A DNA stretch of 64,000 nt from an uncultured Clostridia bacterium (GCA_964479735.1 CAYZNT010000005.1:68194-132193); one strand, 5' to 3'. Numbered from the stretch's first letter, positions 1,120 to 60,307 are shown. The notes: generated from the letters alone by a model not told the origin. Translations and numbers: made by a program.

Positions 1120-1617
1120 ATGCCGCGATCGACCGCCATGCCCGCCGCCCCGCCTCCCTTGAAACGGGCGCTCCGCTGTGCCGCCATCCTGGCGGTGCTG
1201 CTGCTGGCGGTCCCCGCCTGCCGGGTGAGGTACGAACCGCCCGTCGCGGCCGGACGGGAACGGGCCCGCCTGGTCGATCTGGCGCTGCACCTGGTCGGGC
1301 GCCCCTACCGGGCCGGGGGGGACGACATCGACGGCTTCGACTGCAGCGGTTTCGTTTCCTACGTCTATGGGGCCTTCGGCCATCCGCTGCCCCGCAGCGC
1401 CCGCGAGCAGTCTCGCTTGAAGCGACGCATCCCCCTCGGTCGCGCGCAGCCGGCCGACATCCTCCTGTTTCGCCTGGACGGAAAGTGGCATTCCGGCCTG
1501 TACCTCGGCGCCGGCCGCTTCGTGCACGCGCCCAGCACGGGCAAGTCGGTGCGCGTCGTGGAACTCGACGGCTACTGGCGCCGGGCGCTGGTCGCCGTGA
1601 TCGACCGGCTGGGCTGA
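1120..1617 (+). CDS. NlpC/P60 family cell-wall peptidase (lipoprotein-type signal)
   Basis: GRPYRAGGDDIDGFDCSGFVSYVY catalytic Cys motif; signal peptide with LLLAVPAC lipobox-like segment. The track ORF start at 1003 would overlap the tRNA, so the first ATG after the tRNA (1120) is taken; 1138 is an alternative start. Confidence 0.8.
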   Translation: MPRSTAMPAAPPPLKRALRCAAILAVLLLAVPACRVRYEPPVAAGRERARLVDLALHLVGRPYRAGGDDIDGFDCSGFVSYVYGAFGHPLPRSAREQSRLKRRIPLGRAQPADILLFRLDGKWHSGLYLGAGRFVHAPSTGKSVRVVELDGYWRRALVAVIDRLG

Positions 1618-1619
1618 TC

Positions 1620-2306
1620 ATGGGCGATCCGTTGCTGGCAGTGGAAAAGGTCGTCAAGGGATTCGCCATGCCCGACCGCAGCCGGCTGGTCATCCTGGAC
1701 GGCCTCGATCTGGAGATCGAAGCCGGCACGATCCAGGCGGTCAGCGGGGCGTCCGGGTCGGGCAAGAGCACGCTGCTGCACCTGCTCGGCGCGCTGGATC
1801 GGCCGGACCGGGGAACCGTGCGCTTCGCCGGCCGCGACGTGCACCGGTTGCGCGGTCGCGAGCTGGAAGAGTACCGAAACCGCCGGGTCGGCTTCGTATT
1901 CCAGTTCCACTACCTGATGCCCGAGCTGACGGTTCGCGAGAACGTCGCCGCCCCCCTGCTGCTGCGCCGGTTCGACCGCCGCCGCGCCTTCCCGGCTGCC
2001 GACGACCTGCTGGCCCGGGTCGGACTGGCCGACAAGGGCGACCAGATGCCTCACCGGCTCTCCGGTGGCGAGCGGCAGCGGGCGGCCATCGCCCGGGCGC
2101 TGGTCACCGGTCCGCAGCTGCTGCTGGCCGACGAGCCGACCGGGAGCCTGGACATGAAGACCGGCGCCGCCGTGTTCCAGCTGTTCCGCGACCTGCTGCG
2201 CGAACGAGGCCTGACCGCCCTGGTGGTCACCCACAACCCGCTGATCGCCGCCCAGGCAGACCGCCGGCACCTGCTCCGCGACGGCCAGTTGCAGCCTCAG
2301 GAGTGA
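1620..2306 (+). CDS. ABC transporter ATP-binding protein, LolD/MacB/FtsE-like
   Basis: Walker A GASGSGKST, signature LSGGERQR, Walker B LLLADEPTGSLD, and a start typical of LolD-type ATPases. ATG at 1620 follows the NlpC stop by 2 nt. Confidence 0.9.
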   Translation: MGDPLLAVEKVVKGFAMPDRSRLVILDGLDLEIEAGTIQAVSGASGSGKSTLLHLLGALDRPDRGTVRFAGRDVHRLRGRELEEYRNRRVGFVFQFHYLMPELTVRENVAAPLLLRRFDRRRAFPAADDLLARVGLADKGDQMPHRLSGGERQRAAIARALVTGPQLLLADEPTGSLDMKTGAAVFQLFRDLLRERGLTALVVTHNPLIAAQADRRHLLRDGQLQPQE

Positions 2307-2317
2307 ATTCGTTTCTG

Positions 2318-2346
2318 TTGACTTTTCGTCCCCGCCCCTCTATCAT
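2318..2346 (+). promoter_or_regulatory. sigma70-type promoter of the chemosensory operon (leaderless start)
   Basis: TTGACT (2318-2323), exact 17-nt spacer, TATCAT (2341-2346). The ATG at 2356 lies 9 nt after the -10, so the transcript should start at or within about 3 nt of the ATG. No Shine-Dalgarno sequence. Confidence 0.5.
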
Positions 2347-2355
2347 GGCAGGGCG

Positions 2356-3105
2356 ATGAGAAAAATCATTTTTGCCAATCGCAAGGGCGGAAGCGGAAAG
2401 ACAACCGTCGTGGTCAACATCGCCTTCCTGCTCGCGCAGAAACGGCGCCGCGTGCTGGTGATCGACCTCGATTCACAATCGCACTCCACCTTCTACCTGG
2501 GGGGCGCCCCCGACGTGTCCGCGCACACCCTGCAGGGGCTTCTCGACGGATCGGAGCCGTTGGCCGCGCTGGTCCAGCCGACCCGCCATGACCACCTCAG
2601 CCTGCTGCCCTCCACCCGCCACATCGCCGAGCTGAATGAGCGCATCGGCGAGCGCGTCACGTTTCTCGCCGAGGCGCTGGCCGGGGACCTGCCGTTCGAC
2701 TACGTGCTCATCGACCTGCCGCCCTCGCTGGAAAAGATCGTCCTGTGCGGGCTGATCGCCGCCGACGAGGTGCTCATTCCGCTTCAGACCCATTTTTTCC
2801 CGATGCAGGGGCTGGCCCAGCTGGTGCAGCTCGTTACCGAGATCAACCAGCGCTGGAACCCCGGATTGCGGATGAGCGGGATCATCCCCACCCTCTACAA
2901 CGAGCGCACCCGAATCCACCGCGGCGTCATCGACGAGGTCGAGCGGACTTTCGGCCGGAAAATGGTGCTGCCGGGCATCCCCTTCGACATCCGCCTGGCG
3001 GAAGCGCCCAGTTTCCGCGAGCCGATCGCCGTCTACGCGCCCCACAGCAACGCCGCGCGGGCATTCGCCACCCTGGCCGCCCGGATTCTGAGAATGGAGG
3101 CATGA
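2356..3105 (+). CDS. ParA/MinD-family P-loop ATPase (chemosensory-array partitioning type, ParC/PpfA-like)
   Basis: Deviant Walker A KGGSGKTT at the N-terminus and VIDLDSQ switch region. First gene of a che operon and 4 nt from the next ORF. Confidence 0.8.
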   Translation: MRKIIFANRKGGSGKTTVVVNIAFLLAQKRRRVLVIDLDSQSHSTFYLGGAPDVSAHTLQGLLDGSEPLAALVQPTRHDHLSLLPSTRHIAELNERIGERVTFLAEALAGDLPFDYVLIDLPPSLEKIVLCGLIAADEVLIPLQTHFFPMQGLAQLVQLVTEINQRWNPGLRMSGIIPTLYNERTRIHRGVIDEVERTFGRKMVLPGIPFDIRLAEAPSFREPIAVYAPHSNAARAFATLAARILRMEA

Positions 3106-3109
3106 CGGC

Positions 3110-3652
3110 ATGAAAGCCAGGAAAGGACTGGGCATGGGCATGCAGGACCTCCTGCGGTTGACCATGGGAGCGGAGCCGGAGGCCCCTGAGCGTCCTCCCA
3201 CCGGGACGGCAGCCCGGCGCCCCAAGCCGGCGGTTGGACGCAGGTCGCAAGCCGCAACACCCGTTCCGGCCGGGGACCCATCCGCCGCCCGTCGCCGGGA
3301 GCTCGAGGAAGAGAACGATCGCCTGCGCCGCCGGCTCGAGCTGGCGGAGGCTGCCGGCGGGGAACCGTCGCCTGCCGTGGACGGCGAGGCGCTCTACCTC
3401 GCCGCGCTGGGGGCATTGAAAGAGGGGAGGGCCGCCGAGGCCCTGAAACAGCTGCTGGTTTTGGTTCACTTCCAGCCCGGGCACGTCAAGGCGTGGAACA
3501 ACCTGGGCGTGGCGTTCTACGAACTGGGCCTGGGCGACGAGGCCGGCGCCGCGTTCCGGCGCGTGCTGGAACTGGAGCCGGATCACCCGGCGGCCCGTGA
3601 GAACCTGCTGGCACTCGAGGCCGGCCCGGAACCGACAGGAGGCGACTCATGA
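3110..3652 (+). CDS. TPR-repeat protein with N-terminal Ala/Pro/Arg-rich and coiled-coil segment
   Basis: Two to three TPR-like helical hairpins (AEALKQLLVLVHFQPGHVKAWNNLGVAFYELGLGDEAGAAFRRVLELEPDHPAA). Overlaps the downstream gene by 4 nt (ATGA). Confidence 0.7.
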   Translation: MKARKGLGMGMQDLLRLTMGAEPEAPERPPTGTAARRPKPAVGRRSQAATPVPAGDPSAARRRELEEENDRLRRRLELAEAAGGEPSPAVDGEALYLAALGALKEGRAAEALKQLLVLVHFQPGHVKAWNNLGVAFYELGLGDEAGAAFRRVLELEPDHPAARENLLALEAGPEPTGGDS

Positions 3653-5955
3653 GCGCAGGCACCCAGGTCCAGGCCGTGACGACGCCCCGGCCGGCGGAGG
3701 AGCAGGGCAGCGAAATCATGCTCGTGTCCTTCCGGCTGGGGACGGAGGAGTTCGGCATCGACATCGCCAAGGTGCAGGAGATCCTGCGCCTGCCGGACAT
3801 CACGCCCATTCCGCGCAGCCCGGAGCACCTCACCGGCATCACCAACATCCGCGGCTCCATCCTGCCGGTGATCAATGCCAAGATCCGGCTGAAATTGACC
3901 CATGGAGAGGCGGACGAGCGCAATCGCGTGCTGGTCGTCTCCCACGCCGGTTCGCTGACCGGGATGATCGTCGACGAGGTGCACGAGGTGATGCGCATCG
4001 ACAGCCGCAGCATCGAGCCGCCCCCGCCGGTGACGCGCGGCATCGACCGCTTTTTCCTCTCCGGCATCGTCAAGCTGGACGGGGAGCGGCTGGTGATGAT
4101 GCTCAACCTGGACGAGTTCCTGCACGTCGAGGTGCAGCGCCAGGAGTCCCAGCAGCTGACGAGCCGCGAGACCGCGGCGGCGGCGGAAGCCCAGGTCGTG
4201 CGCCAGGAGCAGCTGGTATCCTTCTTCCTGGGGACGGACGAGTTCGCGTTCGACATCGCCGCGGTGCACGAGATCATCCGCGCCCGCGAGATCACCGCGG
4301 TGCCCAATGTGCCCGATTTCGTGGTCGGCATCCAGACGTTGCGCGACACCATCCTGCCGGTGATCGACCTGCGTCGGATCGTGCAGAAGGAAGCGCTGGG
4401 AGAGGAGAGCCGGCAGCGCATCCGCCAGCTGATCGCCTCCCACGCGGAGTGGTCCGATGCCCTGGAACGGGCGGTGAAATCGGGGGTCCCCTTCGACAAG
4501 CCCGTCGATCCGCGCCAGTGCGCCCTGGGCCAGATGCTGGAAGACCGCCAGCGCGGTGTGGCCCTGTTGGGCAGCTCCCTGTTCGGCAAGCTCAACTCGC
4601 GCATCCGCCCGCCGCACAACCGCCTGCACGACAGCGCCCGGCAGGCGATGCAGTGGGCGGCGGGTGAACAGGAACGGGTCCGCGAGGGAGTCGTGGAAGT
4701 GAATCGCTCCGCGCAAAGCCAGGTGACGGACATCTTGGAAGAGGCCCACGTCCAGGTGCTGGACTCCCTGCGCCGCGAACAGAAGGTTCTCGTCGTCGAA
4801 AGCCGCGGTACCACGTTCGGGCTGCTGGTCGATCGCATCAACGAGGTCCTCCGCATCGCCGCCGACAGCATCGACTCGACGCCGGCGCTGATCTCCGGGT
4901 ACGGACGCGAGCTCAAGGGAGTGGCCAAGCTCGACGGCGGCGGCCGCCTGATCATGATGCTGGACGAGCATGCGGTCATCAGCCAGCAGGAGGCGGAGGC
5001 GCTGTCGCAGATCGGCGAGCACGAGAAGCGGGGAGCCCAGAAAAAGACGGAGCAGGTGGACAAGAGCCAGCTGGTGGTCTTCACCATCCACGGTGAGGAG
5101 TTCGGCGTCGCCATCGACCGCGTGCGGGAGATCTTCAAGATCAGCGACATCACCCCGGTTCCCAAGGCCCCGGAATTCGTGGCCGGCCTGACCAACCTGC
5201 GCGGCACCATCATCCCGGTCATCAACGTGCGGCGCCGTTTCGGAATGGTCGACGTGCAGCGCGAGTTCCACGATACGCTGGCGGAGGTCGATCGGCGATT
5301 CCAGGGCCTGCGCCAGGCCCTGCAGGCGGCGATGGCCACCGGCGCTTTCGACGAGGCGCGCCGGGTGGTGGAGCACGCCGAGCTGGGGTCGTTCCTCGAC
5401 GGATTCCAAACCACCAACGACGGCCTCTCCCGCCGCGTCGCCGAGTTGCAGGCGATGTTTCTCGACCTCCAGGCCGAGATTCTCAAGAGCGTGCAGATGA
5501 GCGGCCGCAACCGGGACCGCGGCCAGGAGCTGTTCGACGGCCCGGTGCAGGCTGACATCGCCCGTTTCGAGGCGCACCTTCAGGCGGCCCGGGCGAGCAG
5601 CGGCACCGACCTGCTGCGCGAGGAGAAGATCCTGGTGGTCGCCGCCTCGGGGCTGGCCATCGGCCTCCTGGTGGACAGCGTCCACGAAGTCGTGTCGGTC
5701 CCGCTCTCGGCCATCGAGCCGACTCCCGACCTGGTGCTCGACCAGGTGGAGTCCGCCTACCTGGACGGCATCGCCAAGCTGAACCACGGACAGCGCATGA
5801 TCCTGCTGCTGAACATCGACGAGATCCTCTCCAAGGCGCAGTTCGAGAAGCTGCTCAAGCTGCAAGTCGGGGCCGAAGCGGAAGCGGCCGGGGCTCCGTC
5901 CCCGGCCACCGCCCCGCGCCGCGAACCCCGGCGCAAGCTGAAGATCGAGGAGTGA
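3649..5955 (+). CDS. penta-CheW-domain scaffold protein with embedded CZB-like zinc-binding motif
   Basis: Five CheW-like segments (approx aa 24-160, 187-250, 379-445, 474-532, 660-730), e.g. LVSFRLGTEEFGIDIAKVQEI, LVSFFLGTDEFAFDIAAVHEI, LVVFTIHGEEFGVAIDRVREI. Between domains 2 and 3 lies HAEW-x22-CALGQM-x26-HNRLH, matching the chemoreceptor zinc-binding (CZB) motif. Confidence 0.85.
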   Translation: MSAGTQVQAVTTPRPAEEQGSEIMLVSFRLGTEEFGIDIAKVQEILRLPDITPIPRSPEHLTGITNIRGSILPVINAKIRLKLTHGEADERNRVLVVSHAGSLTGMIVDEVHEVMRIDSRSIEPPPPVTRGIDRFFLSGIVKLDGERLVMMLNLDEFLHVEVQRQESQQLTSRETAAAAEAQVVRQEQLVSFFLGTDEFAFDIAAVHEIIRAREITAVPNVPDFVVGIQTLRDTILPVIDLRRIVQKEALGEESRQRIRQLIASHAEWSDALERAVKSGVPFDKPVDPRQCALGQMLEDRQRGVALLGSSLFGKLNSRIRPPHNRLHDSARQAMQWAAGEQERVREGVVEVNRSAQSQVTDILEEAHVQVLDSLRREQKVLVVESRGTTFGLLVDRINEVLRIAADSIDSTPALISGYGRELKGVAKLDGGGRLIMMLDEHAVISQQEAEALSQIGEHEKRGAQKKTEQVDKSQLVVFTIHGEEFGVAIDRVREIFKISDITPVPKAPEFVAGLTNLRGTIIPVINVRRRFGMVDVQREFHDTLAEVDRRFQGLRQALQAAMATGAFDEARRVVEHAELGSFLDGFQTTNDGLSRRVAELQAMFLDLQAEILKSVQMSGRNRDRGQELFDGPVQADIARFEAHLQAARASSGTDLLREEKILVVAASGLAIGLLVDSVHEVVSVPLSAIEPTPDLVLDQVESAYLDGIAKLNHGQRMILLLNIDEILSKAQFEKLLKLQVGAEAEAAGAPSPATAPRREPRRKLKIEE

Positions 5956-5962
5956 GCAGCGG

Positions 5963-7072
5963 ATGAGCGCCGCGGCCGAACGCGCACCGATCCGGGTGCT
6001 GGTCTGCGACGATTCGGCCCTCATCCGCATGGCCCTGAAACGGATGATCGAGAACGACGCCGAGCTCTGCTACGCGGGCTTCGCCCGCGACGGCGAGGAT
6101 GCGGTGGAGAAGGCCCGCCAGCTGAGGCCCGACGTGATCGTCATGGACGTGGTCATGCCCCGCATGGACGGAATCGCCGCCTTGCGCGAGATCGTCGCCC
6201 AGAAACCCGCCCCCCCGGTGATCATCTTCTCCTCCTCGACGACCGAGGGCGCGGAGCGGACCATCGAGGCCATCGAACAGGGCGCTTTCGACTGCGTGGC
6301 GAAGCCGCGCGGCATGGAGAGCCTGGCGGCGCTGGAGCGAGAGATCGTGGACAAGATCAAGAGCGCGGCCGGGTCCGTCCCGGGACCGGGCGCGCCGGCT
6401 CCGGTCCGGGCCGCCCCTGCGCGCCCCGAGAGCCGGCCGTCCCTGCCGGCCCGCCGGCCCGGCGAGCGCGGGAACTACCCCTTCAAGGCCGTCGCCCTGG
6501 GCATCTCCACCGGCGGTCCGAAGTCCATCTTCGAGGTGCTGCCGCTCTTGCCGGCCGGACTGCCGGCAGCGGTGATCGTCGTGCAGCACATGCCGCCCGA
6601 ATTCACCGGCGCGTTCGCCAAGCGCATCCACAGCCGCACCCGCATGCCCTGTGTCGAATCGGAGGCGGGCATGGCCATCCAGCCCGGCCACATCTACGTC
6701 GCCCGCGGAGGATACCACTTCAAGCTGCTCAGCCGGCCGGGACGGGAACTGCTGGTCCGCCAGACCACGGAACCCAAGCACCTGTTCATGCCGTCCGTAG
6801 ACGTGATGATGGAGGCGGTGCTGGAGTGCTTCCGCGCCGACACCGTCGGCGTGCTGATGACCGGCATGGGGTGGGACGGCGCCGCTGGCATGCTCAAGAT
6901 CCACCAGCAGGGCGGCGTCACCATCGCCGAGAGCGAGGAGACGGCCATCGTGTTCGGCATGCCCCAGGAGGCGATCCGGCGGGGCGGGGCCCAGGTGGTC
7001 GCGCCCCACCGGCGGATCGCGGAGGAAATCGTGCGGGGCGTGAATGCCTGCCCCGAAGAGGGAGTCCCATGA
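5963..7072 (+). CDS. cheB: chemotaxis response regulator protein-glutamate methylesterase
   Basis: N-terminal receiver (IRVLVCDDSALIR...DVIVMDVVMPRMDG) plus C-terminal CheB methylesterase (GISTGGP, VVQHMPPEFT). Confidence 0.95.
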   Translation: MSAAAERAPIRVLVCDDSALIRMALKRMIENDAELCYAGFARDGEDAVEKARQLRPDVIVMDVVMPRMDGIAALREIVAQKPAPPVIIFSSSTTEGAERTIEAIEQGAFDCVAKPRGMESLAALEREIVDKIKSAAGSVPGPGAPAPVRAAPARPESRPSLPARRPGERGNYPFKAVALGISTGGPKSIFEVLPLLPAGLPAAVIVVQHMPPEFTGAFAKRIHSRTRMPCVESEAGMAIQPGHIYVARGGYHFKLLSRPGRELLVRQTTEPKHLFMPSVDVMMEAVLECFRADTVGVLMTGMGWDGAAGMLKIHQQGGVTIAESEETAIVFGMPQEAIRRGGAQVVAPHRRIAEEIVRGVNACPEEGVP

Positions 7073-8154
7073 CCAACGAGGAATGGAAGGAAACTCTGCG
7101 CGTGCTTCGTGTGGGCAGCCCCGAGAACAAGCTGGCGCTGCTGGACGAGTTGCAGAAGACGGCGGACGGCTCCATGGTCGAGCCGCTGGTGGAGATCCTC
7201 GAGGCGGAGCGCAACCGGGCGGTCAAGGAACGGGTGTTCCTGGTTCTGAGCCGGGCGCTGCCGGAGGGCCACTTCGCATCCATCGACCGGCTGCTGCGCT
7301 CCGCCGACCCGTTCGTGCGCAACGGCGCGGTCGAGATCATCAAGCGCAACGACATTCCGCTGATCCAGTTCTTCGAGAAACTGGCCGAGGACGAGAACAA
7401 GGACGTGCGCAAGTTCGTCATCGACGCCTTGTCCCAGGAGCGCACGCCGAAGTCGATCGACATCATCCGCCGCCGGCTGACCGACCCCGACGTCAACATC
7501 GTCTACACGGCCATCGAGTACCTCGGCAATTTCCGTGACCGGGACTCCGTGGGGGCCATCGAGGAAGCGTTGTTCGCGACGGACCGGACCATGGTGATCT
7601 GCGCCGCCCTGGAAGCGCTGGCCAAGATCGGCGTCAGCAATCGCCGGGCCGAGGTCATGGCGAAGTTCTCGCCCAGCACCGACACGCTGCTGATCTTCTC
7701 CATGCTGAAGTACCTGGAGTCGTTCGGCACCGTGGACGACATCGCCTACATCGAGTCGATGCTGGTCGACAAGGTCGGGACCTGCCTGAAGGAAATGATC
7801 GACGCCCTGGACGGCATCCTCGGCCGCACCCAGACCGACGTGCCTGTCTCCCTGCGCGAGCAGTTCGCCCGGGTGCTCGATCTCGGCATCAACCAGGTCG
7901 ACCGGTACGCCATCAACAAGCTGCTGGCGCGCGGCGAGGGGGGAGACTCCCTGGAGCGGGCCCGGAAGCAGCTGGAGGAGGAGGACGTGATGGCCCGGCT
8001 GTCGGCCGTCGAGATCATCGCCGAAAAGGGAGACGCGGACGACATCCCCCGCCTGGAGGAGATCGCCGGCGAAACCGACAGCGACGAGCTGCTGGAGGCG
8101 ATCGGCGACGCGGTGATGAAGATCCGCGATCGGCATTCCGACGGCGGGGGGTGA
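7069..8154 (+). CDS. HEAT/PBS-lyase-like repeat protein
   Basis: Tandem ~30-aa HEAT-like repeats (DPFVRNGAVEIIKRN, NKDVRKFVIDALSQ, DPDVNIVYTAIEYLG, MARLSAVEIIAEKG). Start ATG overlaps the cheB stop (ATGA), indicating translational coupling inside the che operon. Confidence 0.75.
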   Translation: MTNEEWKETLRVLRVGSPENKLALLDELQKTADGSMVEPLVEILEAERNRAVKERVFLVLSRALPEGHFASIDRLLRSADPFVRNGAVEIIKRNDIPLIQFFEKLAEDENKDVRKFVIDALSQERTPKSIDIIRRRLTDPDVNIVYTAIEYLGNFRDRDSVGAIEEALFATDRTMVICAALEALAKIGVSNRRAEVMAKFSPSTDTLLIFSMLKYLESFGTVDDIAYIESMLVDKVGTCLKEMIDALDGILGRTQTDVPVSLREQFARVLDLGINQVDRYAINKLLARGEGGDSLERARKQLEEEDVMARLSAVEIIAEKGDADDIPRLEEIAGETDSDELLEAIGDAVMKIRDRHSDGGG

Positions 8155-8157
8155 GGC

Positions 8158-8991
8158 ATGGAACTCACGGTCGAGGACTTCATCAAGTTCCGGAACCTGA
8201 TCTACGAGAAGGCCGGGCTCTACTTCGAAACCAAGAAGATCTACTTCGTTCACAAGCGGCTGGAGAACCGCGTACTGGCGCTCAACCTGCCCTCCTACGA
8301 CGAGTACCTGAACCGCCTCAAGTTCCAAGACCGCAGCGGAGAGGAGATGCAGAACCTGATCAACCAGCTGACCACGAACGAGACCTATTTCTTCCGCGAG
8401 TACAACCAGATGCAGGTGTTCGTCTCCGATTGCCTGGGCGAGGTCCGCGAGCGAAAGCTGAAGGCCGGCGACCGCACGCTGCGCATCTGGTCGGCCGGCT
8501 GTTCGTCGGGCGAGGAGGCCTACACGCTGGCCATCCTGCTGCTCGAAAACCTGAAGGACCGCCTGTTGTGGACCTTCGACATTTTCGGCTCCGACATCGA
8601 CACCGAGATCCTGCGGCGGGCGCGCGAGGCGAGCTACAACGAGCGATCGGTCAAGGACGTGCCCCCGCCGCTGCTGGCCAAGTATTTCCAGCCCGTCCCG
8701 GGCGGATTCAACCTGCTTCCCGCCGTGAAGTCGATGGTCAGCTTCCGCCACCTCAACCTGTTCGACGCCGCCCAGATGCGGCAGATCAAGGGCGTCGACT
8801 TCATCTTCTGCCGCAACGTGCTGATCTATTTCGACGACATGTCGCGCAAGGCGGTGGTGGCCAGCTTCTACGACAGCCTGAATCCCGGCGGCTACATCTA
8901 TCTCGGGCACGCCGAATCCGTCAGCCGCATCAACACGGCGTTCGCGATCAAGCGCATGGGCGGCCTGATCGTCCACCAGAAACCGGAGTAG
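8158..8991 (+). CDS. cheR: chemotaxis protein methyltransferase
   Basis: CheR N-terminal helical domain plus SAM-binding motifs (RIWSAGCSSGEEAYTLAILL, FDIFGSDIDTEIL, IFCRNVLIYFD). Confidence 0.95.
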   Translation: MELTVEDFIKFRNLIYEKAGLYFETKKIYFVHKRLENRVLALNLPSYDEYLNRLKFQDRSGEEMQNLINQLTTNETYFFREYNQMQVFVSDCLGEVRERKLKAGDRTLRIWSAGCSSGEEAYTLAILLLENLKDRLLWTFDIFGSDIDTEILRRAREASYNERSVKDVPPPLLAKYFQPVPGGFNLLPAVKSMVSFRHLNLFDAAQMRQIKGVDFIFCRNVLIYFDDMSRKAVVASFYDSLNPGGYIYLGHAESVSRINTAFAIKRMGGLIVHQKPE

Positions 8992-9000
8992 GAGAATCCC

Positions 9001-9372
9001 ATGGCCAAGAAGATCCTGATCGTTGACGATTCGGAGATGGTCCGCAACTACCATTACTACATCCTGAAAAACGCCGGGTTCGCCGTCGTCTCGGCCATCG
9101 ACGGCGCGGACGGGCTGGAGAAGATGTTCCAGATACCGGGGATCGACCTGATCGTCACCGACATCAACATGCCCAACATGGACGGCTACACGATGGTCGA
9201 GCGCATTCGCGAGCACCGCGAATTCGAGAAGGTCCCCATCGTCATCATATCCACCGAATCGGAGGCCCACGACAAGCAGCGCGGCTTCGATGCCGGCGCC
9301 GACGTCTACATCGTCAAGCCCATCGAGCCCAACGCCCTCATCGAGAACATCAAGCTGCTGCTGGGGATTTGA
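9001..9372 (+). CDS. cheY: chemotaxis single-domain response regulator
   Basis: 123-aa receiver: DD pair (LIVDDSEMV), phospho-acceptor Asp (LIVTDINMP), conserved Lys (IVKP). Confidence 0.95.
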   Translation: MAKKILIVDDSEMVRNYHYYILKNAGFAVVSAIDGADGLEKMFQIPGIDLIVTDINMPNMDGYTMVERIREHREFEKVPIVIISTESEAHDKQRGFDAGADVYIVKPIEPNALIENIKLLLGI

Positions 9373-11918
9373 CCATGCTCATCGCCATGTCCCGTGACGA
9401 GTTGGTGGTCCTGCTCGAATTCCTGAACGAGTCCGAGGAGCATTTAAGCGGCATCGAGGAGAAGATCCTCAAGCTGGAAATCTCCAAGGACGTCGAGTTC
9501 ATCAATTCCATCTTCCGTCCCATCCACACCATCAAGGGCACGTCGTCCTTCCTCGGCCTGAGCAACATCGGCCACCTGTCCCACGAGGTCGAGACGCTCC
9601 TCGACGACATCCGCAAGGGCCGCATCACCGACATCGATTCCGAGATCATCGACGTGCTGCTGGAGGCCGTCGACGGGATCTCCAAGATGCTGAAGAATAC
9701 CCAGCAGGCGGCCGCCGCCGCGGACCGCTCGCGGGAGCGCAACGAAATCGAGATCGAGGACATCGAATTCGACTCCACCCTGCAGAAGGTGCGACGCCTG
9801 CGCGCCCGCAAGACCGGGGCGGGCGAAGCGGCGGCGCCGGAGCCGGTCGCCGGGCAGCCGGCGGCCGCCGTTTCGGCCCCGGCGATCGACTACGCATCCA
9901 TCCGCTATCCGCAGGAGATGAAGGACGACTACGACCTGGAGTGCGGTGAGCACCTGGCGACGATCGAGGAGATCCTGCTGCGCCTGGAAAGCGACCCCGC
10001 CCGCCTCGAGGTGTACAACGACCTGTTCCGCTCGCTGCACAGCATCAAGGGCAACACCGGCGTCATCCTGTCGGTCATCGATGACGAGTCGGTTCGCCGG
10101 CAGCACTACCTCAACCGCCTGAAGGACGTCGCCCACGCCGCCGAATCCCTGGTGCAGCGCCACCGCGACGAGTCGGTCCCCCTGACCGCGGCCGAGACCG
10201 AGACGCTGCTCAACGCCCTCGACGTCATGAAGCGCCTGCTGCTGGATTTCCACGCCAACCAGGCCAGCGACGTGGACGTGTCGCTGCTGATGGCCGAGTT
10301 GAGCGCCCTGGGGAAGGAACCCGGGGAGGCCGTCGCGGCCATCAAGGAGATCGGCGGCGATTCGCTGGCCCAGGCCGTGTCCAACAGCATCAGCCAGACC
10401 CTCGAGGCCATCGCCGCCGGCATCGACGAGCTGGCCCACGAGGACAAGCGGGCGCGGGCGCTGAAGAAGCTCCAGCGGGCCTACCGCAACATGGCCAAGA
10501 TCGGCGAGAAGATCGGCCACTCGGAGCTGATCGGGAAGGCCGTCGAGTGCGAGCGCATCGCCGACTTCCTTTCCGGGGGCAAGGACGAGAACGAAGGGCT
10601 GATGGTCGACGACCTGCGCCAGCAGCTCGCGTTTTTCCGCCGCCACGCGGACCGCCGCCGGGAGGAAGCCCCCGACCGGCGCAAAGCCACCGTCCCGCCG
10701 CCGCTGGCGGGCGACCGCGGCCTGGCCGGCGCGGAGGCGCGGGCCGGCGACAAGGTGATCAAGGTCGCCCAGGAGAAAGTCGACGTTTTCATGAACCTGA
10801 TCGGCGAGCTGCTGATCAGCAAAAACAACCTGAACTCGCTGGCCAAGGACATCGCCATGCGCCTGGACGTGCCGGACGTGGCCACCCGCGTCAAGGTCTC
10901 GGCCGACGTCATCGCCCGCATCACCGACCAGCTGCAGGCGGGAATCATGCAGATCCGCATGCTGCCGCTGGCCAACGCCTTTTCGCGCTTCCCCCGGCTG
11001 GTGCGCGACCTGTCCAAAAAACTGGGCAAGAAGATCCGCCTGGAGATCAGCGGCGAGGAGACGGAGATCGACAAGAACATCATCGAAGCCATCGGCGACC
11101 CGCTGGTGCACCTCATCCGCAACGCCTGCGACCACGGCATCGAACGCCCCGAGGAGCGGGTTGCCCAGGGCAAGCCGGAAGAGGGGACGGTGCGGCTGAA
11201 GGCCTTCAACCAGGGGCAGTACGTGGGCATCCAGATCGCCGACGACGGCAAGGGCATCGACCCCGGCAGGATCCGATTGAAGGCCCTGGAGAAGGGGGTC
11301 GTTCCCGAGGCCGACCTCGAGCGCATGGACGACACCTCGGCGCTCAACCTGATCTTCCTGCCCGGGTTCTCGCTGGCCCGCGAGGTGACCGACGTGTCGG
11401 GGCGCGGCGTGGGCATGGACGTGGTCAAGACCAACATCGAGAAACTGGGGGGCAACGTGGTCATCGAGAGCGCGGTCAACGCGGGCAGCACCATCACCAT
11501 CCGCCTGCCGCTGACCCTGGCCATCGGACGCGGCCTCGAGGTCGAGACCAACCGGCAGCGATTCTACCTGCCGCTCGAGTACATCATCGAGACCACCAAG
11601 GTGGAGAAGGACCGCCTGTTCAGCTACAAGGGCCGGATGATGACCGTCATCCGCGACGAGATGCTCCCCGTCTTCCGCCTGCGCGACCGCCTGAGCCTGG
11701 GAGGCAACGGGGGACCCCAGGGCGCCATGCAGCCGCTGGTGATCCTGAATGTCAAGAACCAGAAACTCGGCCTGCTGGTCGACCAGGTATACAACGAGAG
11801 CGAGTACGTGATCAAGCCCCTGGCCGACATGGTCAGCGGCATCGACGTCGTCTCCGGCGCGATGATCACCGGCGAGGGGAGGGTCCACCTGATCCTGGAT
11901 CCCCTGAGGCTGTTCTGA
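9369..11918 (+). CDS. cheA: chemotaxis histidine kinase with two Hpt domains
   Basis: Hpt-1 (FRPIHTIKGTSSFLGL) and Hpt-2 (FRSLHSIKGNTGVILS), dimerisation region, HATPase_c (DDGKGID, GRGVGMDVV) and C-terminal CheW-like P5 domain. The start is either the listed TTG at 9369, overlapping the cheY stop, or ATG 9375. Confidence 0.92.
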   Translation: MTMLIAMSRDELVVLLEFLNESEEHLSGIEEKILKLEISKDVEFINSIFRPIHTIKGTSSFLGLSNIGHLSHEVETLLDDIRKGRITDIDSEIIDVLLEAVDGISKMLKNTQQAAAAADRSRERNEIEIEDIEFDSTLQKVRRLRARKTGAGEAAAPEPVAGQPAAAVSAPAIDYASIRYPQEMKDDYDLECGEHLATIEEILLRLESDPARLEVYNDLFRSLHSIKGNTGVILSVIDDESVRRQHYLNRLKDVAHAAESLVQRHRDESVPLTAAETETLLNALDVMKRLLLDFHANQASDVDVSLLMAELSALGKEPGEAVAAIKEIGGDSLAQAVSNSISQTLEAIAAGIDELAHEDKRARALKKLQRAYRNMAKIGEKIGHSELIGKAVECERIADFLSGGKDENEGLMVDDLRQQLAFFRRHADRRREEAPDRRKATVPPPLAGDRGLAGAEARAGDKVIKVAQEKVDVFMNLIGELLISKNNLNSLAKDIAMRLDVPDVATRVKVSADVIARITDQLQAGIMQIRMLPLANAFSRFPRLVRDLSKKLGKKIRLEISGEETEIDKNIIEAIGDPLVHLIRNACDHGIERPEERVAQGKPEEGTVRLKAFNQGQYVGIQIADDGKGIDPGRIRLKALEKGVVPEADLERMDDTSALNLIFLPGFSLAREVTDVSGRGVGMDVVKTNIEKLGGNVVIESAVNAGSTITIRLPLTLAIGRGLEVETNRQRFYLPLEYIIETTKVEKDRLFSYKGRMMTVIRDEMLPVFRLRDRLSLGGNGGPQGAMQPLVILNVKNQKLGLLVDQVYNESEYVIKPLADMVSGIDVVSGAMITGEGRVHLILDPLRLF

Positions 11919-11957
11919 CATGGGGGGCGGCGCGCGGCTGTGCCGGAAGGGCCGGCC

Positions 11958-13211
11958 ATGAAGGACGTGCTGGCGGTCATCCTCGGCGGCGGTCGCGGCA
12001 CCCGCCTCTATCCGCTGACTCGCTACCGGTCCAAGCCGGCCGTGCCGATCGGCGGGAAATTCAGGCTGATCGACATCCCCATCTCCAACTGCCTCCACGC
12101 GGAGATCCGCAAGATCTACGTGCTCACCCAGTTCAACACGGCCTCGCTGCACCGCCACATCTCGCAGACCTACCAGTTCGACTCCTACTCGGACGGCTTC
12201 CTGCAGATCCTGGCCGCGCAGCAGACCATGGCCGATTCCGACTGGTACCAGGGGACGGCCGACGCGGTGCGCAAGAACCTCGGCTACATCCGCGAACAGA
12301 AGGCGGGCACGGTGGTCATCCTTTCCGGCGACCAGCTCTACCGGATCAACCTGCGGGATTTCGTCGCCGCCCACCTCCGCGACGGCGCCGACCTGACCAT
12401 CGCCGTCAAGCCGGTCACCCGGTCCCAGGCTCCGGAGTTCGGCATCCTGAAGATCGACGCCGGGCAACGCATCAGCCACTTCGTCGAGAAGCCGAAGGAC
12501 CCGGCGGTGCTGGACGAATACCGCCGACCGGCGGCCGGCGCGGACGAGTACCTCGCCTCGATGGGCATTTACGCGTTCCGCAAGGACACCCTGGTGGCGT
12601 TGCTGGAGCGGGACAGCCGCGCCGACTTCGGCCACCAGATCATCCCTTCGGCCATCGGGGACTGCCACGTCCGGGCCTGCGAGTTCCACGGCTACTGGGA
12701 GGACATCGGCACCATCCGCTCCTTCTTCGAGGCCAACCTCGATTTCGCCGCCCCCGTGCCCCGATTCGACTTCTACGACGAGGAGTATCCGGTCTACACC
12801 CACAAGCGCTTCCTGCCCGGGGCCAAGATCGGAGACTGCGCCGTCCGCCATGCGCTCATCAGCGACGGATCGATCATCGAGGGGGGCCGCATCGCGGAGT
12901 CGGTCGTCGGCCTCCGCTCGATCATCCGCCGCGGCGCCGACCTGGAGCGGGTGGTGATGATGGGCGCCGATTACTACGAGACCGCGGCCGAACAGCTTCG
13001 CCGCCGCGAACAGCGCCGCCCGCTGCTGGGCGTAGGCGCCGGCTGCGTGATCCGAAACGCGATCCTGGACAAGAACGTGCGCGTCGGCGACGGCGTGCGC
13101 ATCGTCAACCAGCGGGGCGTGATGCAGGCCCAAACGGACGAGTACCTGATCGTCGATGGCATCGTCGTCGTGCCCAAAAACGCCGAGTTGCCAGACGGAT
13201 TCGTGATCTGA
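11958..13211 (+). CDS. glgC: glucose-1-phosphate adenylyltransferase
   Basis: VLAVILGGGRGTRLYPLT...KPAVPIGGKFRLIDIPISNC is the GlgC signature. ATG 11958 is preferred because GGAAGG lies 7 nt upstream; the track start 11940 is the alternative. Confidence 0.9.
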   Translation: MKDVLAVILGGGRGTRLYPLTRYRSKPAVPIGGKFRLIDIPISNCLHAEIRKIYVLTQFNTASLHRHISQTYQFDSYSDGFLQILAAQQTMADSDWYQGTADAVRKNLGYIREQKAGTVVILSGDQLYRINLRDFVAAHLRDGADLTIAVKPVTRSQAPEFGILKIDAGQRISHFVEKPKDPAVLDEYRRPAAGADEYLASMGIYAFRKDTLVALLERDSRADFGHQIIPSAIGDCHVRACEFHGYWEDIGTIRSFFEANLDFAAPVPRFDFYDEEYPVYTHKRFLPGAKIGDCAVRHALISDGSIIEGGRIAESVVGLRSIIRRGADLERVVMMGADYYETAAEQLRRREQRRPLLGVGAGCVIRNAILDKNVRVGDGVRIVNQRGVMQAQTDEYLIVDGIVVVPKNAELPDGFVI

Positions 13212-13274
13212 CCATGGCGCCGGCCATCCGGCGGAAACGCCGCGCCCGGCTGACTGCATAGGGGAGGAACCCAC

Positions 13275-15437
13275 ATGACGCGAATGAAAATGGCGGGATG
13301 GCTGCTGGCATGCTGCGGTTTGCTGCTGGCCGGAGAGGGAAAGAGGCTGACCTATGAGCAGGCCCTGTTGAACCGCGGCGAGGCCCTGCTCAAGCCGCTG
13401 CCGTTCATCAGCGGCTGGTCCGACGATCAGTCGTACCACGAGTTGCGCGGCGGCAAGATCTACCGGGTGCTCGCGCGCAGCGGGAAAAGCCGCCTGGTCC
13501 TCGATCCCGCCCCGTACGCCGCGGCATTGCCCCAGGGGCTCACCCTGCTGCAGGCGAACGACAACACGCCGGATTACCGGCTTTTCGTCTTCGTCCACAA
13601 GGGCGATCTCTACCTGTTCCGCCGCGACGCGGCCAGGCTGGAACGGCTGACCGAGACCCCGGGCGACGAGCAGAACCCGCAGTTCTCTCCGGACGGGCGC
13701 CGCATCGCCTACACCCGGGAGGGCAACCTCTACGTCTGCGACCTGGCCAGCCGGCAGAGCCGGGCACTGACCCGCGACGGCAGCGCCACCGTCCTCAACG
13801 GCCACGCGTCATGGGTCTACTACGAGGAGATACTCGGCCGCGGCAGCCGCTACCGGGCCTTCTGGTGGAGCCCCGACTCGCTGCGCATCGCCTTCATGCG
13901 CTTCGATCAGGAACGGGTGCCGGAGTTCCCCCTGTTCCAGGTGCGCGGCGACTACGGGCAGCTGGAGATTCAGCGCTACCCCAAGGCGGGGTACCCCAAC
14001 CCCCAGGTGCGCCTGGGCGTCGCCGACGCTGCCTCCGGGGACATCCGCTGGGTGCCCGAGGCCGATGCCGCCGACCACTACCTGGCGCTGCCCAGGTGGT
14101 CGGGAAACGGAGGCCGGCTCTACTTCCAGTGGGCGAACCGGGACCAGAACTGGATGCGGATTTTCCGCTTCGACCCCGCCTCCGGAAGGCTGGAGCAGGC
14201 CTACGAAGAGAAGCAGGCGACCTGGGTGGAGTTCGGCGAGGGCAGCGACTACCAGGTGCTGCCCGACGGTGGCCTGCTGCTCGTCAGTTCCCGCGAGGGC
14301 TGGCCGCACCTCTACCGCGTCGCCGCCAACGGCGGTGTGGAGCAGCTGACCCGCGGCGACTGGTCCGTCTCCGGGATAAGCCTGGTGGATGCGGCCCGCA
14401 AGCGGGTCCTGTTCACGGCGCGCCGCGAGGATTCGACCGAGCTCGGCCTGTACGAGATCCCGCTGGCCGGGGGGGGGCTGCGCCGCTTGACCGGCGGGCC
14501 CGGCATGCACCGGGTCAGCGTCTCGCCCGGCGGTTCCTGGTTCACCGACTTCCATTCGGCCCTGGGCGTCCCGCCGCGGCTGCTGCTGTGGCGCGGCGAC
14601 GGCCGGCTGCAGCGGCAGCTGGGCGACAGCCGCACCGACAAGCTGGCCGAGTACGATCTCGGCCGGGCCGAGCTGTTCCGCATCCCGACGAGCGACGGCC
14701 TGCAGCTGCCGGCAGCCTGGATCCTGCCCCCGGGGTTCGACCCTTCCACCCGTTACCCGGTGGTCCTCAACGTTTATGGCGGTCCCGGGGCGGCCTCGGT
14801 AGGCAACGCCTTCGGCCGCGGCTTCGCCGAATACTATCTGGCCCAGCAGGGCATCATCGTCATGACCTTCGATCATCGGGGCTCCGGCCACTTCGGCAAG
14901 AAAGGCGAGGACCTGATGCACCGCCAGCTCGGGAAGTGGGAGCTGAACGACCTGCAGGAGGCCGTCCGCCACCTGCGCAGCCTGCCCTTCGTCGACGGCC
15001 AGCGGATCGGCATCACCGGGGGATCCTACGGCGGGTACGTGGCGGCCCTGGCCCTGCTGCGCGCGGGCGATCTCTTCCGCTGCGGCATCGCCGACTTCGC
15101 GGTCACCGACTGGCGGCTCTACGATTCCGTCTACACCGAGCGCTACATGGACACCCCCGAGCAGAACCCGGACGGTTATCGCGACTCGTCGCTGCTTCAT
15201 GCCGTAGACGGCTACCGCGGCGGCCTGCGCATCGCCCACGGATCCATGGACGACAATGTCCACATGCAGAACGCGCTGCAGCTCATCGACCGCCTGCAGG
15301 ACGCCGGCAAGAGCGTCGAGCTGATGATCTATCCCGGGGAGCGGCACGGTTTCCGTGGCCCCAAGTCGGTCGAGTACCGGCGCGCCAACCTCGACTTCTG
15401 GTGCCGCCACTTCTTCAACCGTCCCTTCGTGCCGTAG
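13275..15437 (+). CDS. S9-family serine peptidase (DPP-IV/prolyl-oligopeptidase-like), secreted
   Basis: Signal peptide, beta-propeller N-terminal region, catalytic GGSYGGY nucleophile elbow, and C-terminal Asp/His region (GSMDDNVHMQN, ERHGF). Confidence 0.88.
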   Translation: MTRMKMAGWLLACCGLLLAGEGKRLTYEQALLNRGEALLKPLPFISGWSDDQSYHELRGGKIYRVLARSGKSRLVLDPAPYAAALPQGLTLLQANDNTPDYRLFVFVHKGDLYLFRRDAARLERLTETPGDEQNPQFSPDGRRIAYTREGNLYVCDLASRQSRALTRDGSATVLNGHASWVYYEEILGRGSRYRAFWWSPDSLRIAFMRFDQERVPEFPLFQVRGDYGQLEIQRYPKAGYPNPQVRLGVADAASGDIRWVPEADAADHYLALPRWSGNGGRLYFQWANRDQNWMRIFRFDPASGRLEQAYEEKQATWVEFGEGSDYQVLPDGGLLLVSSREGWPHLYRVAANGGVEQLTRGDWSVSGISLVDAARKRVLFTARREDSTELGLYEIPLAGGGLRRLTGGPGMHRVSVSPGGSWFTDFHSALGVPPRLLLWRGDGRLQRQLGDSRTDKLAEYDLGRAELFRIPTSDGLQLPAAWILPPGFDPSTRYPVVLNVYGGPGAASVGNAFGRGFAEYYLAQQGIIVMTFDHRGSGHFGKKGEDLMHRQLGKWELNDLQEAVRHLRSLPFVDGQRIGITGGSYGGYVAALALLRAGDLFRCGIADFAVTDWRLYDSVYTERYMDTPEQNPDGYRDSSLLHAVDGYRGGLRIAHGSMDDNVHMQNALQLIDRLQDAGKSVELMIYPGERHGFRGPKSVEYRRANLDFWCRHFFNRPFVP

Positions 15438-15466
15438 GCGCCGGGCCGCCGGCCGGGAGGCGAGGC

Positions 15467-16111
15467 ATGGGTGAAATGCTGCTGAAGATGGTTCTGGCGG
15501 CCCTGCTGGGCGGGATCATCGGTCTGGAGCGGGAGCTGGCCCACAAGGAAGCCGGCCTGCGCACGATGATCCTCATCGCCATGGGAAGCGCCCTGATCAC
15601 GGTGCTGTCCATCGCTTTCCCGGGCGTGGCCGGCGGCGGTGACCCGGCGCGGCTGGCGGCGCAGATCGTCACCGGCATCGGCTTTCTCGGGGCCGGGGCC
15701 ATCATCCAGGCGCGCATGGCGGTCCATGGGCTGACGACAGCCGCCTCCATCTGGGCGGTATCGGGGATCGGCATCGCCGTCGGGCTCGGCTATTACCTCT
15801 TCCCGCTGCTGGTGACCCTGCTGGTGGTGCTGGTCCTGGCCGTGTTCCGCCAGTTGGCCAATTTCCTGGAAAGGCAGAAACAGGTGTTCATCTACCAGAT
15901 CGCCTTTTCCGAGCGGGTCGCCATTTTCTTCGACATCAAGAAGGTGATGACCGAGCTGAACATCCGGTCGTCCCAGTCCCGGCTCACCAAGAGCCGCGGC
16001 GGCTACGAGCTGGAGCTCGTTTTCACCACCTCTCCCCACAAGGGGCGCGAGTTCGTGGAGAAGGTGATCCACCTGCAGGGCGTGACCGAGCTGCTGAGCG
16101 AGAACCTGTAG
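15467..16111 (+). CDS. MgtC/SapB-family membrane protein
   Basis: MgtC N-terminal TM domain (LAALLGGIIGLERE) plus C-terminal ACT-like domain. It is the C-terminal 214 aa of a longer artefactual track ORF; the start is computed from a GGGAGG-preceded ATG. Confidence 0.8.
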   Translation: MGEMLLKMVLAALLGGIIGLERELAHKEAGLRTMILIAMGSALITVLSIAFPGVAGGGDPARLAAQIVTGIGFLGAGAIIQARMAVHGLTTAASIWAVSGIGIAVGLGYYLFPLLVTLLVVLVLAVFRQLANFLERQKQVFIYQIAFSERVAIFFDIKKVMTELNIRSSQSRLTKSRGGYELELVFTTSPHKGREFVEKVIHLQGVTELLSENL

Positions 16112-16114
16112 ACG

Positions 16115-16711
16115 ATGGACCTGCTGCTGGCCACGGCCAACCGGGGCAAGGCGGGAGAGTTCGCCGCATTGCTGGGGGCGGTTGGCGCGGGCTGGCGGCT
16201 GCTGACGCTCGCCGACCTGGGCATCGCCGCCACCGCCCGGGAGACCGGGGCCACCTTTCGCGAGAACGCCCGCATCAAGGCGCTGCACTACAGCCGCCTG
16301 GCCGGCGGGCGGCTCACCCTGGCCGACGACTCCGGCCTGGAGGTGGCGGCGCTGGGAGGGGCTCCCGGGGTGCGCTCGGCCCGCTATGCCGGAGAGGGCG
16401 CCCCCGACCGCGCCCACGTGGACAAGCTCCTGGCCGCCCTCGCCGGCGAGACCGACCGGCGCGCCGCCTTCACCGTGTGGCTGCACCTGGCGCGCGCGGG
16501 GGAGACGGTGGCGGAGTTCCACGGCCGGGCGGCGGGCACCATCCTCGACCGTCCGCGGGGCGAAGGTGGCTTCGGCTACGACCCGGTTTTCTACTACCCC
16601 CCCCTGGGCAAGAGCTTCGCCGAGCTGGAAGCCTCCGAGAAGAACCGCGTTTCGCACCGTGCCCGCGCGGTCTCCCGGCTGAGCGACTTCCTGGCCGGAT
16701 ATCACCCCTGA
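16115..16711 (+). CDS. rdgB: non-canonical purine NTP pyrophosphatase (RdgB/HAM1)
   Basis: LLLATANRGK...DDSGLEV...GFGYDPVF are the Maf/Ham1 signatures. Confidence 0.9.
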   Translation: MDLLLATANRGKAGEFAALLGAVGAGWRLLTLADLGIAATARETGATFRENARIKALHYSRLAGGRLTLADDSGLEVAALGGAPGVRSARYAGEGAPDRAHVDKLLAALAGETDRRAAFTVWLHLARAGETVAEFHGRAAGTILDRPRGEGGFGYDPVFYYPPLGKSFAELEASEKNRVSHRARAVSRLSDFLAGYHP

Positions 16712-17318: not shown

Positions 17319-17720
17319 ATGGTCGCGTTGCTGCTGCTGCTCGCCCTGCAGGACCAGTACCTGCTGATGCAGCCGATCCAGGCCTCCCTGGAGAGCGGCG
17401 ACTACGCGGCCCTGCAGTCCATCTGCCGCGAGCGGGTGGCGGCCAACCTGGAGGAACCGCTGGCCATGCGCGGCTATTACGGTCGTGAGCGCTTCTGCCG
17501 CACCCTGGGCTCCCGCCTGCGGCCGTACCGCGTCCGCCGCGTGCAGTGGTCGGCGATCCAGGTCGGCAACGAGCGGGCCGTGCAGTCCCTCGAACTGACC
17601 CTGCGCCACGTGACCTCGGGTCAGTCGCTGACGGTCAAGCTGATCTTCTTCATGAGCCAGGTCCCATCCCCCGGGGGGCGCGAGTGGCGGCTCGATTACC
17701 TGCGCGGGCTGCGCATATGA
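17319..17720 (+). CDS. hypothetical 133-aa protein with hydrophobic N-terminus
   Basis: In-frame ATG with no recognisable family; its stop overlaps the start of the downstream sensor kinase (ATGA). Confidence 0.4.
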   Translation: MVALLLLLALQDQYLLMQPIQASLESGDYAALQSICRERVAANLEEPLAMRGYYGRERFCRTLGSRLRPYRVRRVQWSAIQVGNERAVQSLELTLRHVTSGQSLTVKLIFFMSQVPSPGGREWRLDYLRGLRI

Positions 17721-57347: not shown

Positions 57348-57413
57348 GGGAATTGAGATAATTCGCCGTGCCGGGTATATAGTAGCCTGCGAAAGTCTCG
57401 AGGAGTGGCTGGC

Positions 57414-60233: not shown

Positions 60234-60272
60234 CCACCCGGCCGCGGCGCGGCCCACGGCCGGCCGGGCGGT

Positions 60273-60301
60273 TTGTCAAACGGTCCGGCATCTGGTATAA
60301 C
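60273..60301 (+). promoter_or_regulatory. sigma70-type promoter with extended -10, leaderless start of the sigma-54 regulator gene
   Basis: TTGTCA (60273-60278), 17-nt spacer, TGGTATAAC (60293-60301). The ATG at 60308 is 6 nt after the -10 hexamer. Confidence 0.5.
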
Positions 60302-60307
60302 CGGCAC

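Follow-up and report, generated by a model that had tools for sequence, protein, structure and literature searches.

The F9 class of chemosensory systems reportedly goes back to the classification made by Wuichet and Zhulin in 2010. Its signature is a scaffold of three concatenated CheW domains (CheW3, VC1402 in Vibrio cholerae) together with DosM, a methyl-accepting chemotaxis protein (MCP) with two signaling domains (PMC7534058, PMC9321776), and the CheW:CheW:CheW scaffold is the defining feature of the class (PMC9321776 table S1). The F9 arrays of V. cholerae are flat, double-layered and purely cytoplasmic, an arrangement known for that species only (PMC7534058), and in the same paper DosM is reported to be essential for array formation. 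In 72 species the genes are arranged as [DosM W3 B. R Y A] (PMC9321776 tables S1 and S6), and cluster I of V. cholerae reads CheW3-CheB-hypothetical-CheR-CheY-CheA (VC1402-VC1397; PMC7534058 table S1). Here we describe an operon of eight chemosensory and associated genes within a stretch of 64,000 nucleotides, hereafter the window, from an uncultured Clostridia bacterium (GCA_964479735.1 CAYZNT010000005.1:68194-132193). We consider it likely that this operon belongs to the F9 class, the class of V. cholerae cluster I, as a variant that lacks dosM and is served by receptors encoded elsewhere in the genome.

Gene order and genomic distribution of the operon

A Pfam domain search on the open reading frames of the window identified eight co-directional genes on the plus strand between 2356 and 11918. 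They encode, in order, a ParA-type ATPase, a TPR protein, a multi-CheW protein, CheB, a HEAT-repeat protein, CheR, CheY and CheA, which is the content and order that an earlier note on this DNA had proposed from inspection. The genes are tightly packed, with junctions that are either overlaps of 4 nt or gaps of 3-9 nt, and the same gene set was present in independent gene calls on further assemblies from the host organism. From the third gene onward the order W3-B-HEAT-R-Y-A matches the F9 order M-W-B-...-R-Y-A minus its first gene, dosM, and neither beside cheW3 nor elsewhere in the window and the 8.7 kb further upstream was a DosM found. The triple-CheW scaffold is present, with two of its domains interrupted, and the HEAT gene sits at the place of the conserved unnamed F9 gene between cheB and cheR (VC1400, a hypothetical protein, in V. 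cholerae). The best matches of CheA, CheB and CheR fall in clusters that contain DosM and CheW3, which served as a proxy for class assignment. Because W3-B-x-R-Y-A equals the published F9 order, that of the 72 species including V. cholerae, the composition is that of a known Che class. The earlier note had not recognized it among characterized systems and had named a gene order already known as a Che class as the finding that would tell against this view; the order has proved to be just that.

The proteins encoded downstream of the scaffold are well preserved. CheB (5963-7072), a methylesterase with a REC domain that scores above the NCBIfam cutoff, has its catalytic Ser182, His209 and Asp305 as well as the REC aspartate. 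It is followed by the HEAT-repeat protein (361 aa, 7069-8154, Pfam HEAT_2) and by the methyltransferase CheR, whose S-adenosylmethionine (SAM) motifs IWSAGCSSGEE and RNVLIYF are intact. The cheR gene is real, as had been claimed; the open reading frame at 8151 is in the wrong frame for it, and the correct one is 8158-8991. CheY, a single-domain response regulator (9001-9372), precedes CheA (847 aa, 9375-11918), in which the two Hpt domains noted before were confirmed, with HTIKG at His51 and HSIKG at His222; these are followed by a helical region of about 200 aa and by P3, P4 and P5. An extra region before P3 has been reported for CheA of the F9 class (2026 Vibrionales preprint) and is a further feature shared with that class, besides the scaffold and the gene order. 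A cytoplasmic array would likewise be expected here by homology. The locus differs from V. cholerae cluster I (VC1394-VC1403) in three respects: there is no DosM beside cheW3 or within about 72 kb, a ParA-TPR pair that cluster I does not have stands in front, and insertions of about 120 aa occupy two of the three CheW domains.

Neighborhoods were compared in 22 genomic loci with true CheW3 homologues, supplied by a genome-contig profile search seeded with an eight-sequence alignment, and in five more found by exact-protein look-up, all annotated with phmmer and Pfam; a genome-contig scan seeded with the window protein alone gave no match. In 19 of the 21 homologous loci that could be assessed, dosM lies directly upstream of cheW3 and the same order follows downstream. 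The DosM of these loci is an MCP of about 650-720 aa with two signaling domains, confirmed as two Pfam MCPsignal matches for D. limicola. Three groups were distinguished. Group C, with genomes labeled Desulfobacterota, KSB1, Calditrichota, Fibrobacterota and Deferribacterota, has the order [ParA-TPR-Hsp70-like]-DosM-W3-B-[CheV]-HEAT-R-Y-[Y]-A. The gene for the Hsp70/actin-like ATPase (GIDLGTTNS), which stands between ParA-TPR and dosM in DosM clusters (L004, 6526-8058; L012, about 4700-5300; L025, about 6230-6900), is absent from the window variant. In group B (L006, L109, L110 and L113) a dCache/HAMP MCP with one signaling domain lies upstream of a W3 whose CZB domain keeps its ligands, and is followed downstream by [B], HEAT, R, Y, A, CheV and a hybrid kinase (REC-PAS), with ParA in none of the four; L110 and L113 are also without cheB. 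This group looks like an F9-derived system that has moved to the membrane. Group A comprises the window, L005 (a metagenome-assembled genome, or MAG, of 53% GC, CAYWEM01) and L107/L108, with the order ParA-TPR-W3 (carrying two insertions)-B-HEAT-R-Y-A and no MCP. Both the window and L005 have glgC and a gene for a dipeptidyl peptidase IV (DPP-IV) downstream of this set.

The proteins of the window and of L005 are 59% (CheB), 58% (CheR), 57% (CheA) and 60% (GlgC) identical. To judge from such comparisons, the dosM-less arrangement is evolutionarily stable and is no accident of assembly, because it has been retained between genomes whose orthologues are 33-75% identical.

The CheW3 scaffold and its insertions

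The 768-aa protein encoded at 3649-5955 had been described as containing five CheW domains, a penta-CheW scaffold. Three approaches show instead that it contains three, of which two are split by helical insertions of about 120 aa. When CheW domain 1 was searched against the whole protein, one full match was obtained (aa 20-165), together with two pairs of half-matches, one for domain 2 (profile positions 5-81 at aa 188-266 and 72-137 at aa 377-440) and one for domain 3 (positions 5-65 at aa 474-534 and 72-140 at aa 658-728). A search with a hidden Markov model (HMM) of the family agreed, giving one whole and two split domains. The five CheW stretches reported by Pfam thus resolve into a whole domain at aa 20-165 and two split ones, at 186-258 plus 376-448 and at 471-537 plus 658-729. 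Finally, an AlphaFold2 model (75 homologues, mean pLDDT 85) has three CheW beta domains with helical bundles at aa 250-377 and 536-656, both of which enter CheW where the short helix behind the PVIDLR strand ends. With this model as query, Foldseek returned CheW structures first and four-helix bundles next. We take the insertion loop to correspond approximately to residues 76-86 of Escherichia coli CheW, by alignment to the E. coli sequence. Along the DNA, the uninterrupted domain 1 (aa 20-165) lies at 3706-4143. Domain 2 consists of an N-terminal half (aa 186-249, profile positions 3-75; 4204-4395) and a C-terminal half (aa 378-448; 4780-4992) with insertion 1 (aa 250-377; 4396-4779) between them. 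In domain 3 the halves (aa 471-535, 5059-5253; aa 657-729, 5617-5835) flank insertion 2 (aa 536-656; 5254-5616), which occupies the same loop.

Insertion 1 is a four-helix bundle (predicted helices at aa 250-278, 292-301, 309-336 and 341-377) that contains a CZB domain overlooked in the earlier note. Pfam CZB (PF13682) matches aa 265-334 with 32.4 bits, against a cutoff of 29.4, and all four zinc ligands (3His/1Cys) are present in the motif H..W / C.LG / H...H. Insertion 2 is also predicted to be a helical bundle (helices at 536-563, 567-584, 591-618 and 622-649) and is without zinc ligands. It was considered as a degenerate CZB domain, and we do not claim this homology: its score against an HMM of insertion 1 is 14.5 bits and the hhalign probability is 12%, both weak.

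At E≤1e-30 the multi-CheW family has 585 representatives among 1.84 billion. Of the best 120 matches, 106 carry a break in the second domain and 11 are uninterrupted in all three; the remaining 3, which are the window copy and the sister proteins P0003 and P0004, have two domains split. The second insertion, in CheW domain 3, occurs in only two 50%-identity clusters among the 1.84 billion representatives, and when the three double-insertion proteins were used to seed a metagenome scan, all matches were single- or double-CheW proteins and none was a further member of the group. Loss of dosM coincides with the second insertion, in exactly the three loci without an MCP. The His/Cys/His/His ligands of insertion 1 are kept in only 9 of the 109 CheW3 homologues with a domain-2 insertion, and most CZB-like bundles in this family probably bind no zinc. 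Two published F9 clusters are listed with "W4, quadruple CheW domains" (PMC9321776 table S6). As domain finders count the halves of a split CheW domain as separate matches, both might be CheW3 proteins that carry an insertion.

The ParA-TPR module and the location of the receptors

ParA (249 aa, 2356-3105; Pfam AAA_31 at 1e-37, and CbiA) carries KGGSGKT, as the earlier note had pointed out, which we read as the deviant Walker A signature KGGxxGK[ST] on a Soj/ParA-like fold. The closest solved structure is Soj of Thermus thermophilus (1wcv, E 1.7e-44), MinD being far weaker at about 1e-10 to 1e-13. The next gene (3110-3652) encodes a protein of 180 aa (Pfam TPR_2/TPR_16), a putative ParA-activating adaptor, in which a basic N-terminal peptide, MKARKGLGMGMQDLL, is followed by a Pro/Arg-rich linker, a short coiled segment and C-terminal TPRs. 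Its N-terminus reads MKARKGLGMGMQDLLRL, and those of the sister TPR proteins MTKRKPLGMGMKELL and MAKRKPLGMGMKELL. The TPR partners of group C retain basic residues followed by (T/G)(S/T)LxDLL, and the TPR proteins of all ParA-TPR loci examined have a basic N-terminal motif with (G/T)xLxDLL. This N-terminus resembles the N-terminal Soj-activating peptide of Spo0J/ParB (..GLGRGL.ALL). Short basic N-terminal peptides of the kind seen in MKARKGLGMGMQDLL are a general mark of ParA activators, and TlpT, the partner of PpfA, has one (PMC7993993).

The distribution of the pair follows the type of receptor. Of the 14 DosM loci that have at least 8 kb of upstream sequence, 10 have a ParA gene at a distance of 4-5 kb upstream, and in 8 of these 10 a TPR gene comes next. 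ParA is present in all three loci without an MCP and in none of the four with a dCache/HAMP, membrane-type MCP. The basic TPR peptide, and the presence of the pair in DosM and no-MCP loci together with its absence from membrane-MCP loci, support, and do not prove, the notion that ParA-TPR uses the nucleoid to position a cytoplasmic array. The comparison made before with ParA-positioned chemoreceptor clusters is therefore a reasonable one, given a Soj-like ParA and a TPR protein with a short basic N-terminal peptide. PpfA-TlpT of Rhodobacter sphaeroides likewise combines a Soj-like ATPase encoded within a che operon with a partner bearing a basic N-terminal extension (PMC7993993, PMC10241942), but here the partner is a small TPR protein rather than a chemoreceptor, the che class is different and the function of ParA is a prediction. 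ParC-ParP of Vibrio, which serves F6 arrays, also pairs a ParA-family ATPase with a dedicated adaptor in a che cluster; ParP, however, is CheW-like and acts in polar targeting via HubP, whereas in the window a TPR protein serves as the putative adaptor and ParA is nearest to chromosomal Soj. The proposal that the TPR and multi-CheW proteins take the adaptor slot was not upheld; they fill neither a receptor nor an adaptor slot, as both coexist with DosM in most relatives. In the literature searched, which was incomplete, no description surfaced of ParA-TPR with F9 or of an insertion in CheW3.

We turn now to the receptors. MCPs were sought by tblastn and phmmer with the Tsr signaling domain and by a regular expression for the hairpin; as a control, the Tsr probe found MCPs in 30 other loci at 50-260 bits, two of them confirmed by Pfam. 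By none of these means was an MCP signaling domain detected in the 64-kb window. The assertion that no MCP lies in or near the operon was thus borne out. The conclusion drawn from it, that the system is receptor-less and self-scaffolding, was not, since CheB and CheR are intact and conserved and the receptor-coupling residues of CheW are invariant or nearly so. CheB, with its triad and REC aspartate, and CheR, with its SAM motifs, are conserved between the two dosM-less genomes at the level of GlgC and CheA. In E. coli CheW, Arg62 and Glu38 form a salt bridge that couples to receptors (Ortega et al. 2013, as cited in PMC10653840). Their equivalents in the three domains of CheW3 are R68/E44, R232/E208 and R518/E494, and in 75 homologues, group A included, the pair is invariant or nearly so in all three. 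Because CheB, CheR and these receptor-binding residues are intact, receptors are most likely encoded elsewhere in the genome, and MCP genes are usually scattered in genomes, as in V. cholerae (PMC7534058 table S1). CheW3, the HEAT protein, the TPR protein and CheA were each considered as the methyl-accepting protein and rejected; none contains a methylation-site consensus. The cytoplasmic location that had also been put forward is plausible by homology with F9 (PMC7534058).

Several observations weigh against the reading of the locus as a dosM-less F9 operon with a cytoplasmic array and distant receptors. The first is that the search for an MCP was also negative in another 8.7 kb of upstream sequence (contig L002 of the same organism), where all genes are of the polysaccharide, acetate-kinase, NlpC/P60 or ABC type, so that about 72 kb in total are without one. 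Second, since DosM is reported to be essential in V. cholerae (PMC7534058), an F9 system without dosM may not build the classical double-layered array. Third, ParA is absent from cluster I of V. cholerae (PMC7534058 table S1), and ParA-TPR is therefore no general feature of F9. Fourth, the sister proteins P0003 and P0004 have lost the zinc ligands of insertion 1, and CZB sensing is therefore not a defining feature of the dosM-less group. Finally, the nearest relatives by CheA and HEAT are those of group B, in which CheW3 is paired with a transmembrane-type MCP. The window CheA is 53-57% identical to groups A and B versus 35% to group C, and at the dCache-MCP loci L006 and L109 CheA is 53-56%, HEAT 45-49% and CheR 60-62% identical to the window proteins, as against 35% for CheA and about 30% for HEAT at the DosM-linked loci. 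Given this kinship, the array of the window could be membrane-bound.

The last point leads to the alternative that the operon builds ordinary membrane-bound arrays with transmembrane MCPs encoded elsewhere, as in group B, in which case ParA-TPR would serve in polar targeting, in the manner of ParC-ParP, or would have no role in placing the array. Besides the greater nearness of CheA, HEAT and CheR to the dCache-MCP loci, group B shows that CheW3 can pair with a membrane-type receptor. Yet the ParA-TPR pair is found in the DosM loci, where the receptor is of the cytoplasmic type, and in none of the four loci whose MCP is of the membrane type, and its ParA is Soj-like rather than MinD-like. On balance we regard a membrane-bound array as rather unlikely.

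A more radical alternative is that the array is truly receptor-less, cytoplasmic and self-scaffolding, the two four-helix-bundle insertions of CheW3 having taken over the structural and/or sensory role of the receptor after the loss of dosM and CheA being controlled through the CZB domain of CheW3. In support of this may be cited the lack of an MCP within about 72 kb, the coincidence of dosM loss with the gain of the second insertion, the great rarity of this architecture and the precedent for a sensor fused to CheW in CheWS (PMC10653840). Against it, CheB and CheR are not only intact but conserved like housekeeping genes, no protein of the operon examined for a methylation consensus has one, and the receptor-binding Arg/Glu pair has been maintained in all three CheW domains. 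In addition, the sister proteins are without zinc ligands, homology of insertion 2 to CZB or MCPs could not be demonstrated, and the dispersal of MCP genes is commonplace. The insertions were also considered as mimics of the MCP hairpin, and the Tsr probe gave no significant match on CheW3. We therefore hold this alternative to be improbable. The same low probability applies to an F9-derived lineage without any receptors, in which, once dosM was gone, the two CheW3 bundles, one of them a zinc- or oxidant-sensing CZB, would provide lattice contacts as well as input, and ParA-TPR would use the nucleoid to partition the receptor-free assembly of CheA and CheW3. More likely than this is a weaker version, in which ParA-TPR positions the cytoplasmic arrays of F9 systems in a way not described before. 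As for a decaying, non-functional remnant left after deletion of dosM, for which one might invoke the missing signature receptor and the DosM pseudogenes in two published F9 clusters (PMC9321776 table S6), it is very hard to credit when all eight reading frames are intact with high GC at third codon positions throughout 2356-11918, the catalytic residues are conserved and the arrangement persists in a genome that has diverged to 40-75% protein identity.

Some observations concern the expression and surroundings of the operon. A sigma-70-like promoter, TTGACT-17-TATCAT (2318-2346, plus strand), is the top site of its kind in 15 kb (1400-16200), on the basis of a consensus match alone (10 of 12 positions), and agrees with the leaderless first gene that had been proposed. 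As this putative promoter ends 9 nt ahead of the parA ATG at 2356, parA would be effectively leaderless, or nearly so. Downstream, a gap of 39 nt without a terminator-like site separates the cheA stop from glgC (11958-13211), and the DPP-IV peptidase gene is next (region 11919-15437). Because the cheA-glgC-DPP-IV synteny is retained in the 53%-GC sister MAG (L005, 18167-21674), glgC may be co-transcribed with the che operon. The window as a whole is about 68% GC, and the host is a high-GC diderm. A dip to 0.62 in 8001-10000, over cheR and cheY, compares with flanks of about 0.68; codon positions 1 and 2 are AT-richer there, and the dip probably reflects protein composition and not foreign origin. 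Elsewhere the window encodes a HAMP histidine kinase of 1226 aa, a Ser/Thr kinase, a protein with seven PKD repeats, a sigma-54 response regulator and lipopolysaccharide-core/O-antigen proteins (coordinates given for these genes are 17546-21226, 44159-45988, 57405-60233 and 60083-61705). No flagellar, pilus or motility genes were found in the 64 kb.

A possible mechanism and its implications

For a dosM-less F9 operon with receptors encoded elsewhere, the following scheme may be envisaged. CheA and the triple-CheW scaffold would form the baseplate, and CheB and CheR would adapt methyl-accepting receptors encoded at other sites in the genome, with the HEAT protein as a conserved F9 accessory. 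CheY would provide the output; no output of F9 is known even in V. cholerae. ParA in its ATP form would bind the nucleoid, and the TPR protein would activate ATP hydrolysis through its ParB-like basic N-terminal peptide, its TPR domain tethering the array as cargo. In this way cytoplasmic clusters might be spaced, positioned and inherited on the nucleoid, as with PpfA-TlpT in Rhodobacter. The CZB domain in CheW domain 2 would probably give the baseplate a direct input for zinc or oxidants.

We know of no CheW-CZB protein that has been characterized. The architecture makes up 1.4% of CZB proteins (PMC8262984), and the chemistry of the domain has been described (PMC8262984, PMC6715182). The window protein shares the Pfam CZB domain and the 3His/1Cys motif with CZB sensors such as TlpD of Helicobacter pylori and DgcZ of E. 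coli, but differs from them in the placement of its CZB, which interrupts one of three CheW domains in the loop behind the PVIDLR strand. A precedent for sensing at the level of the scaffold is CheWS of Treponema denticola, where input likewise comes through a sensor domain attached to CheW (PMC10653840). There, however, the sensor is a CheR-like SAM binder rather than a CZB, and it is a C-terminal fusion in a system of class F2, as opposed to an internal insertion in one of class F9.

The F9 class itself is known and the locus is not categorically new. Four features appear to be undescribed in the literature searched: an F9 cluster that is evolutionarily stable without dosM, the ParA-TPR module with its pattern of occurrence, a CZB domain lodged in a CheW domain and the very rare second insertion. 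F9 systems are widespread and their function is not known, and DosM has been thought essential to the building of their arrays. Given a stable variant that has no dosM, one may ask which other component can hold such arrays together, and a lineage free of receptors, if it should prove real, would be of high interest. The association of ParA-TPR with clusters of the cytoplasmic type, together with its absence from those that have a membrane-type receptor, suggests a second partitioning route for cytoplasmic arrays, independent of PpfA-TlpT. The CZB domain, if it is a sensor, would be a concrete case of input that enters through the scaffold and not through a receptor, and its presence in CheW3 hints that zinc or oxidant status is an input of F9 systems.

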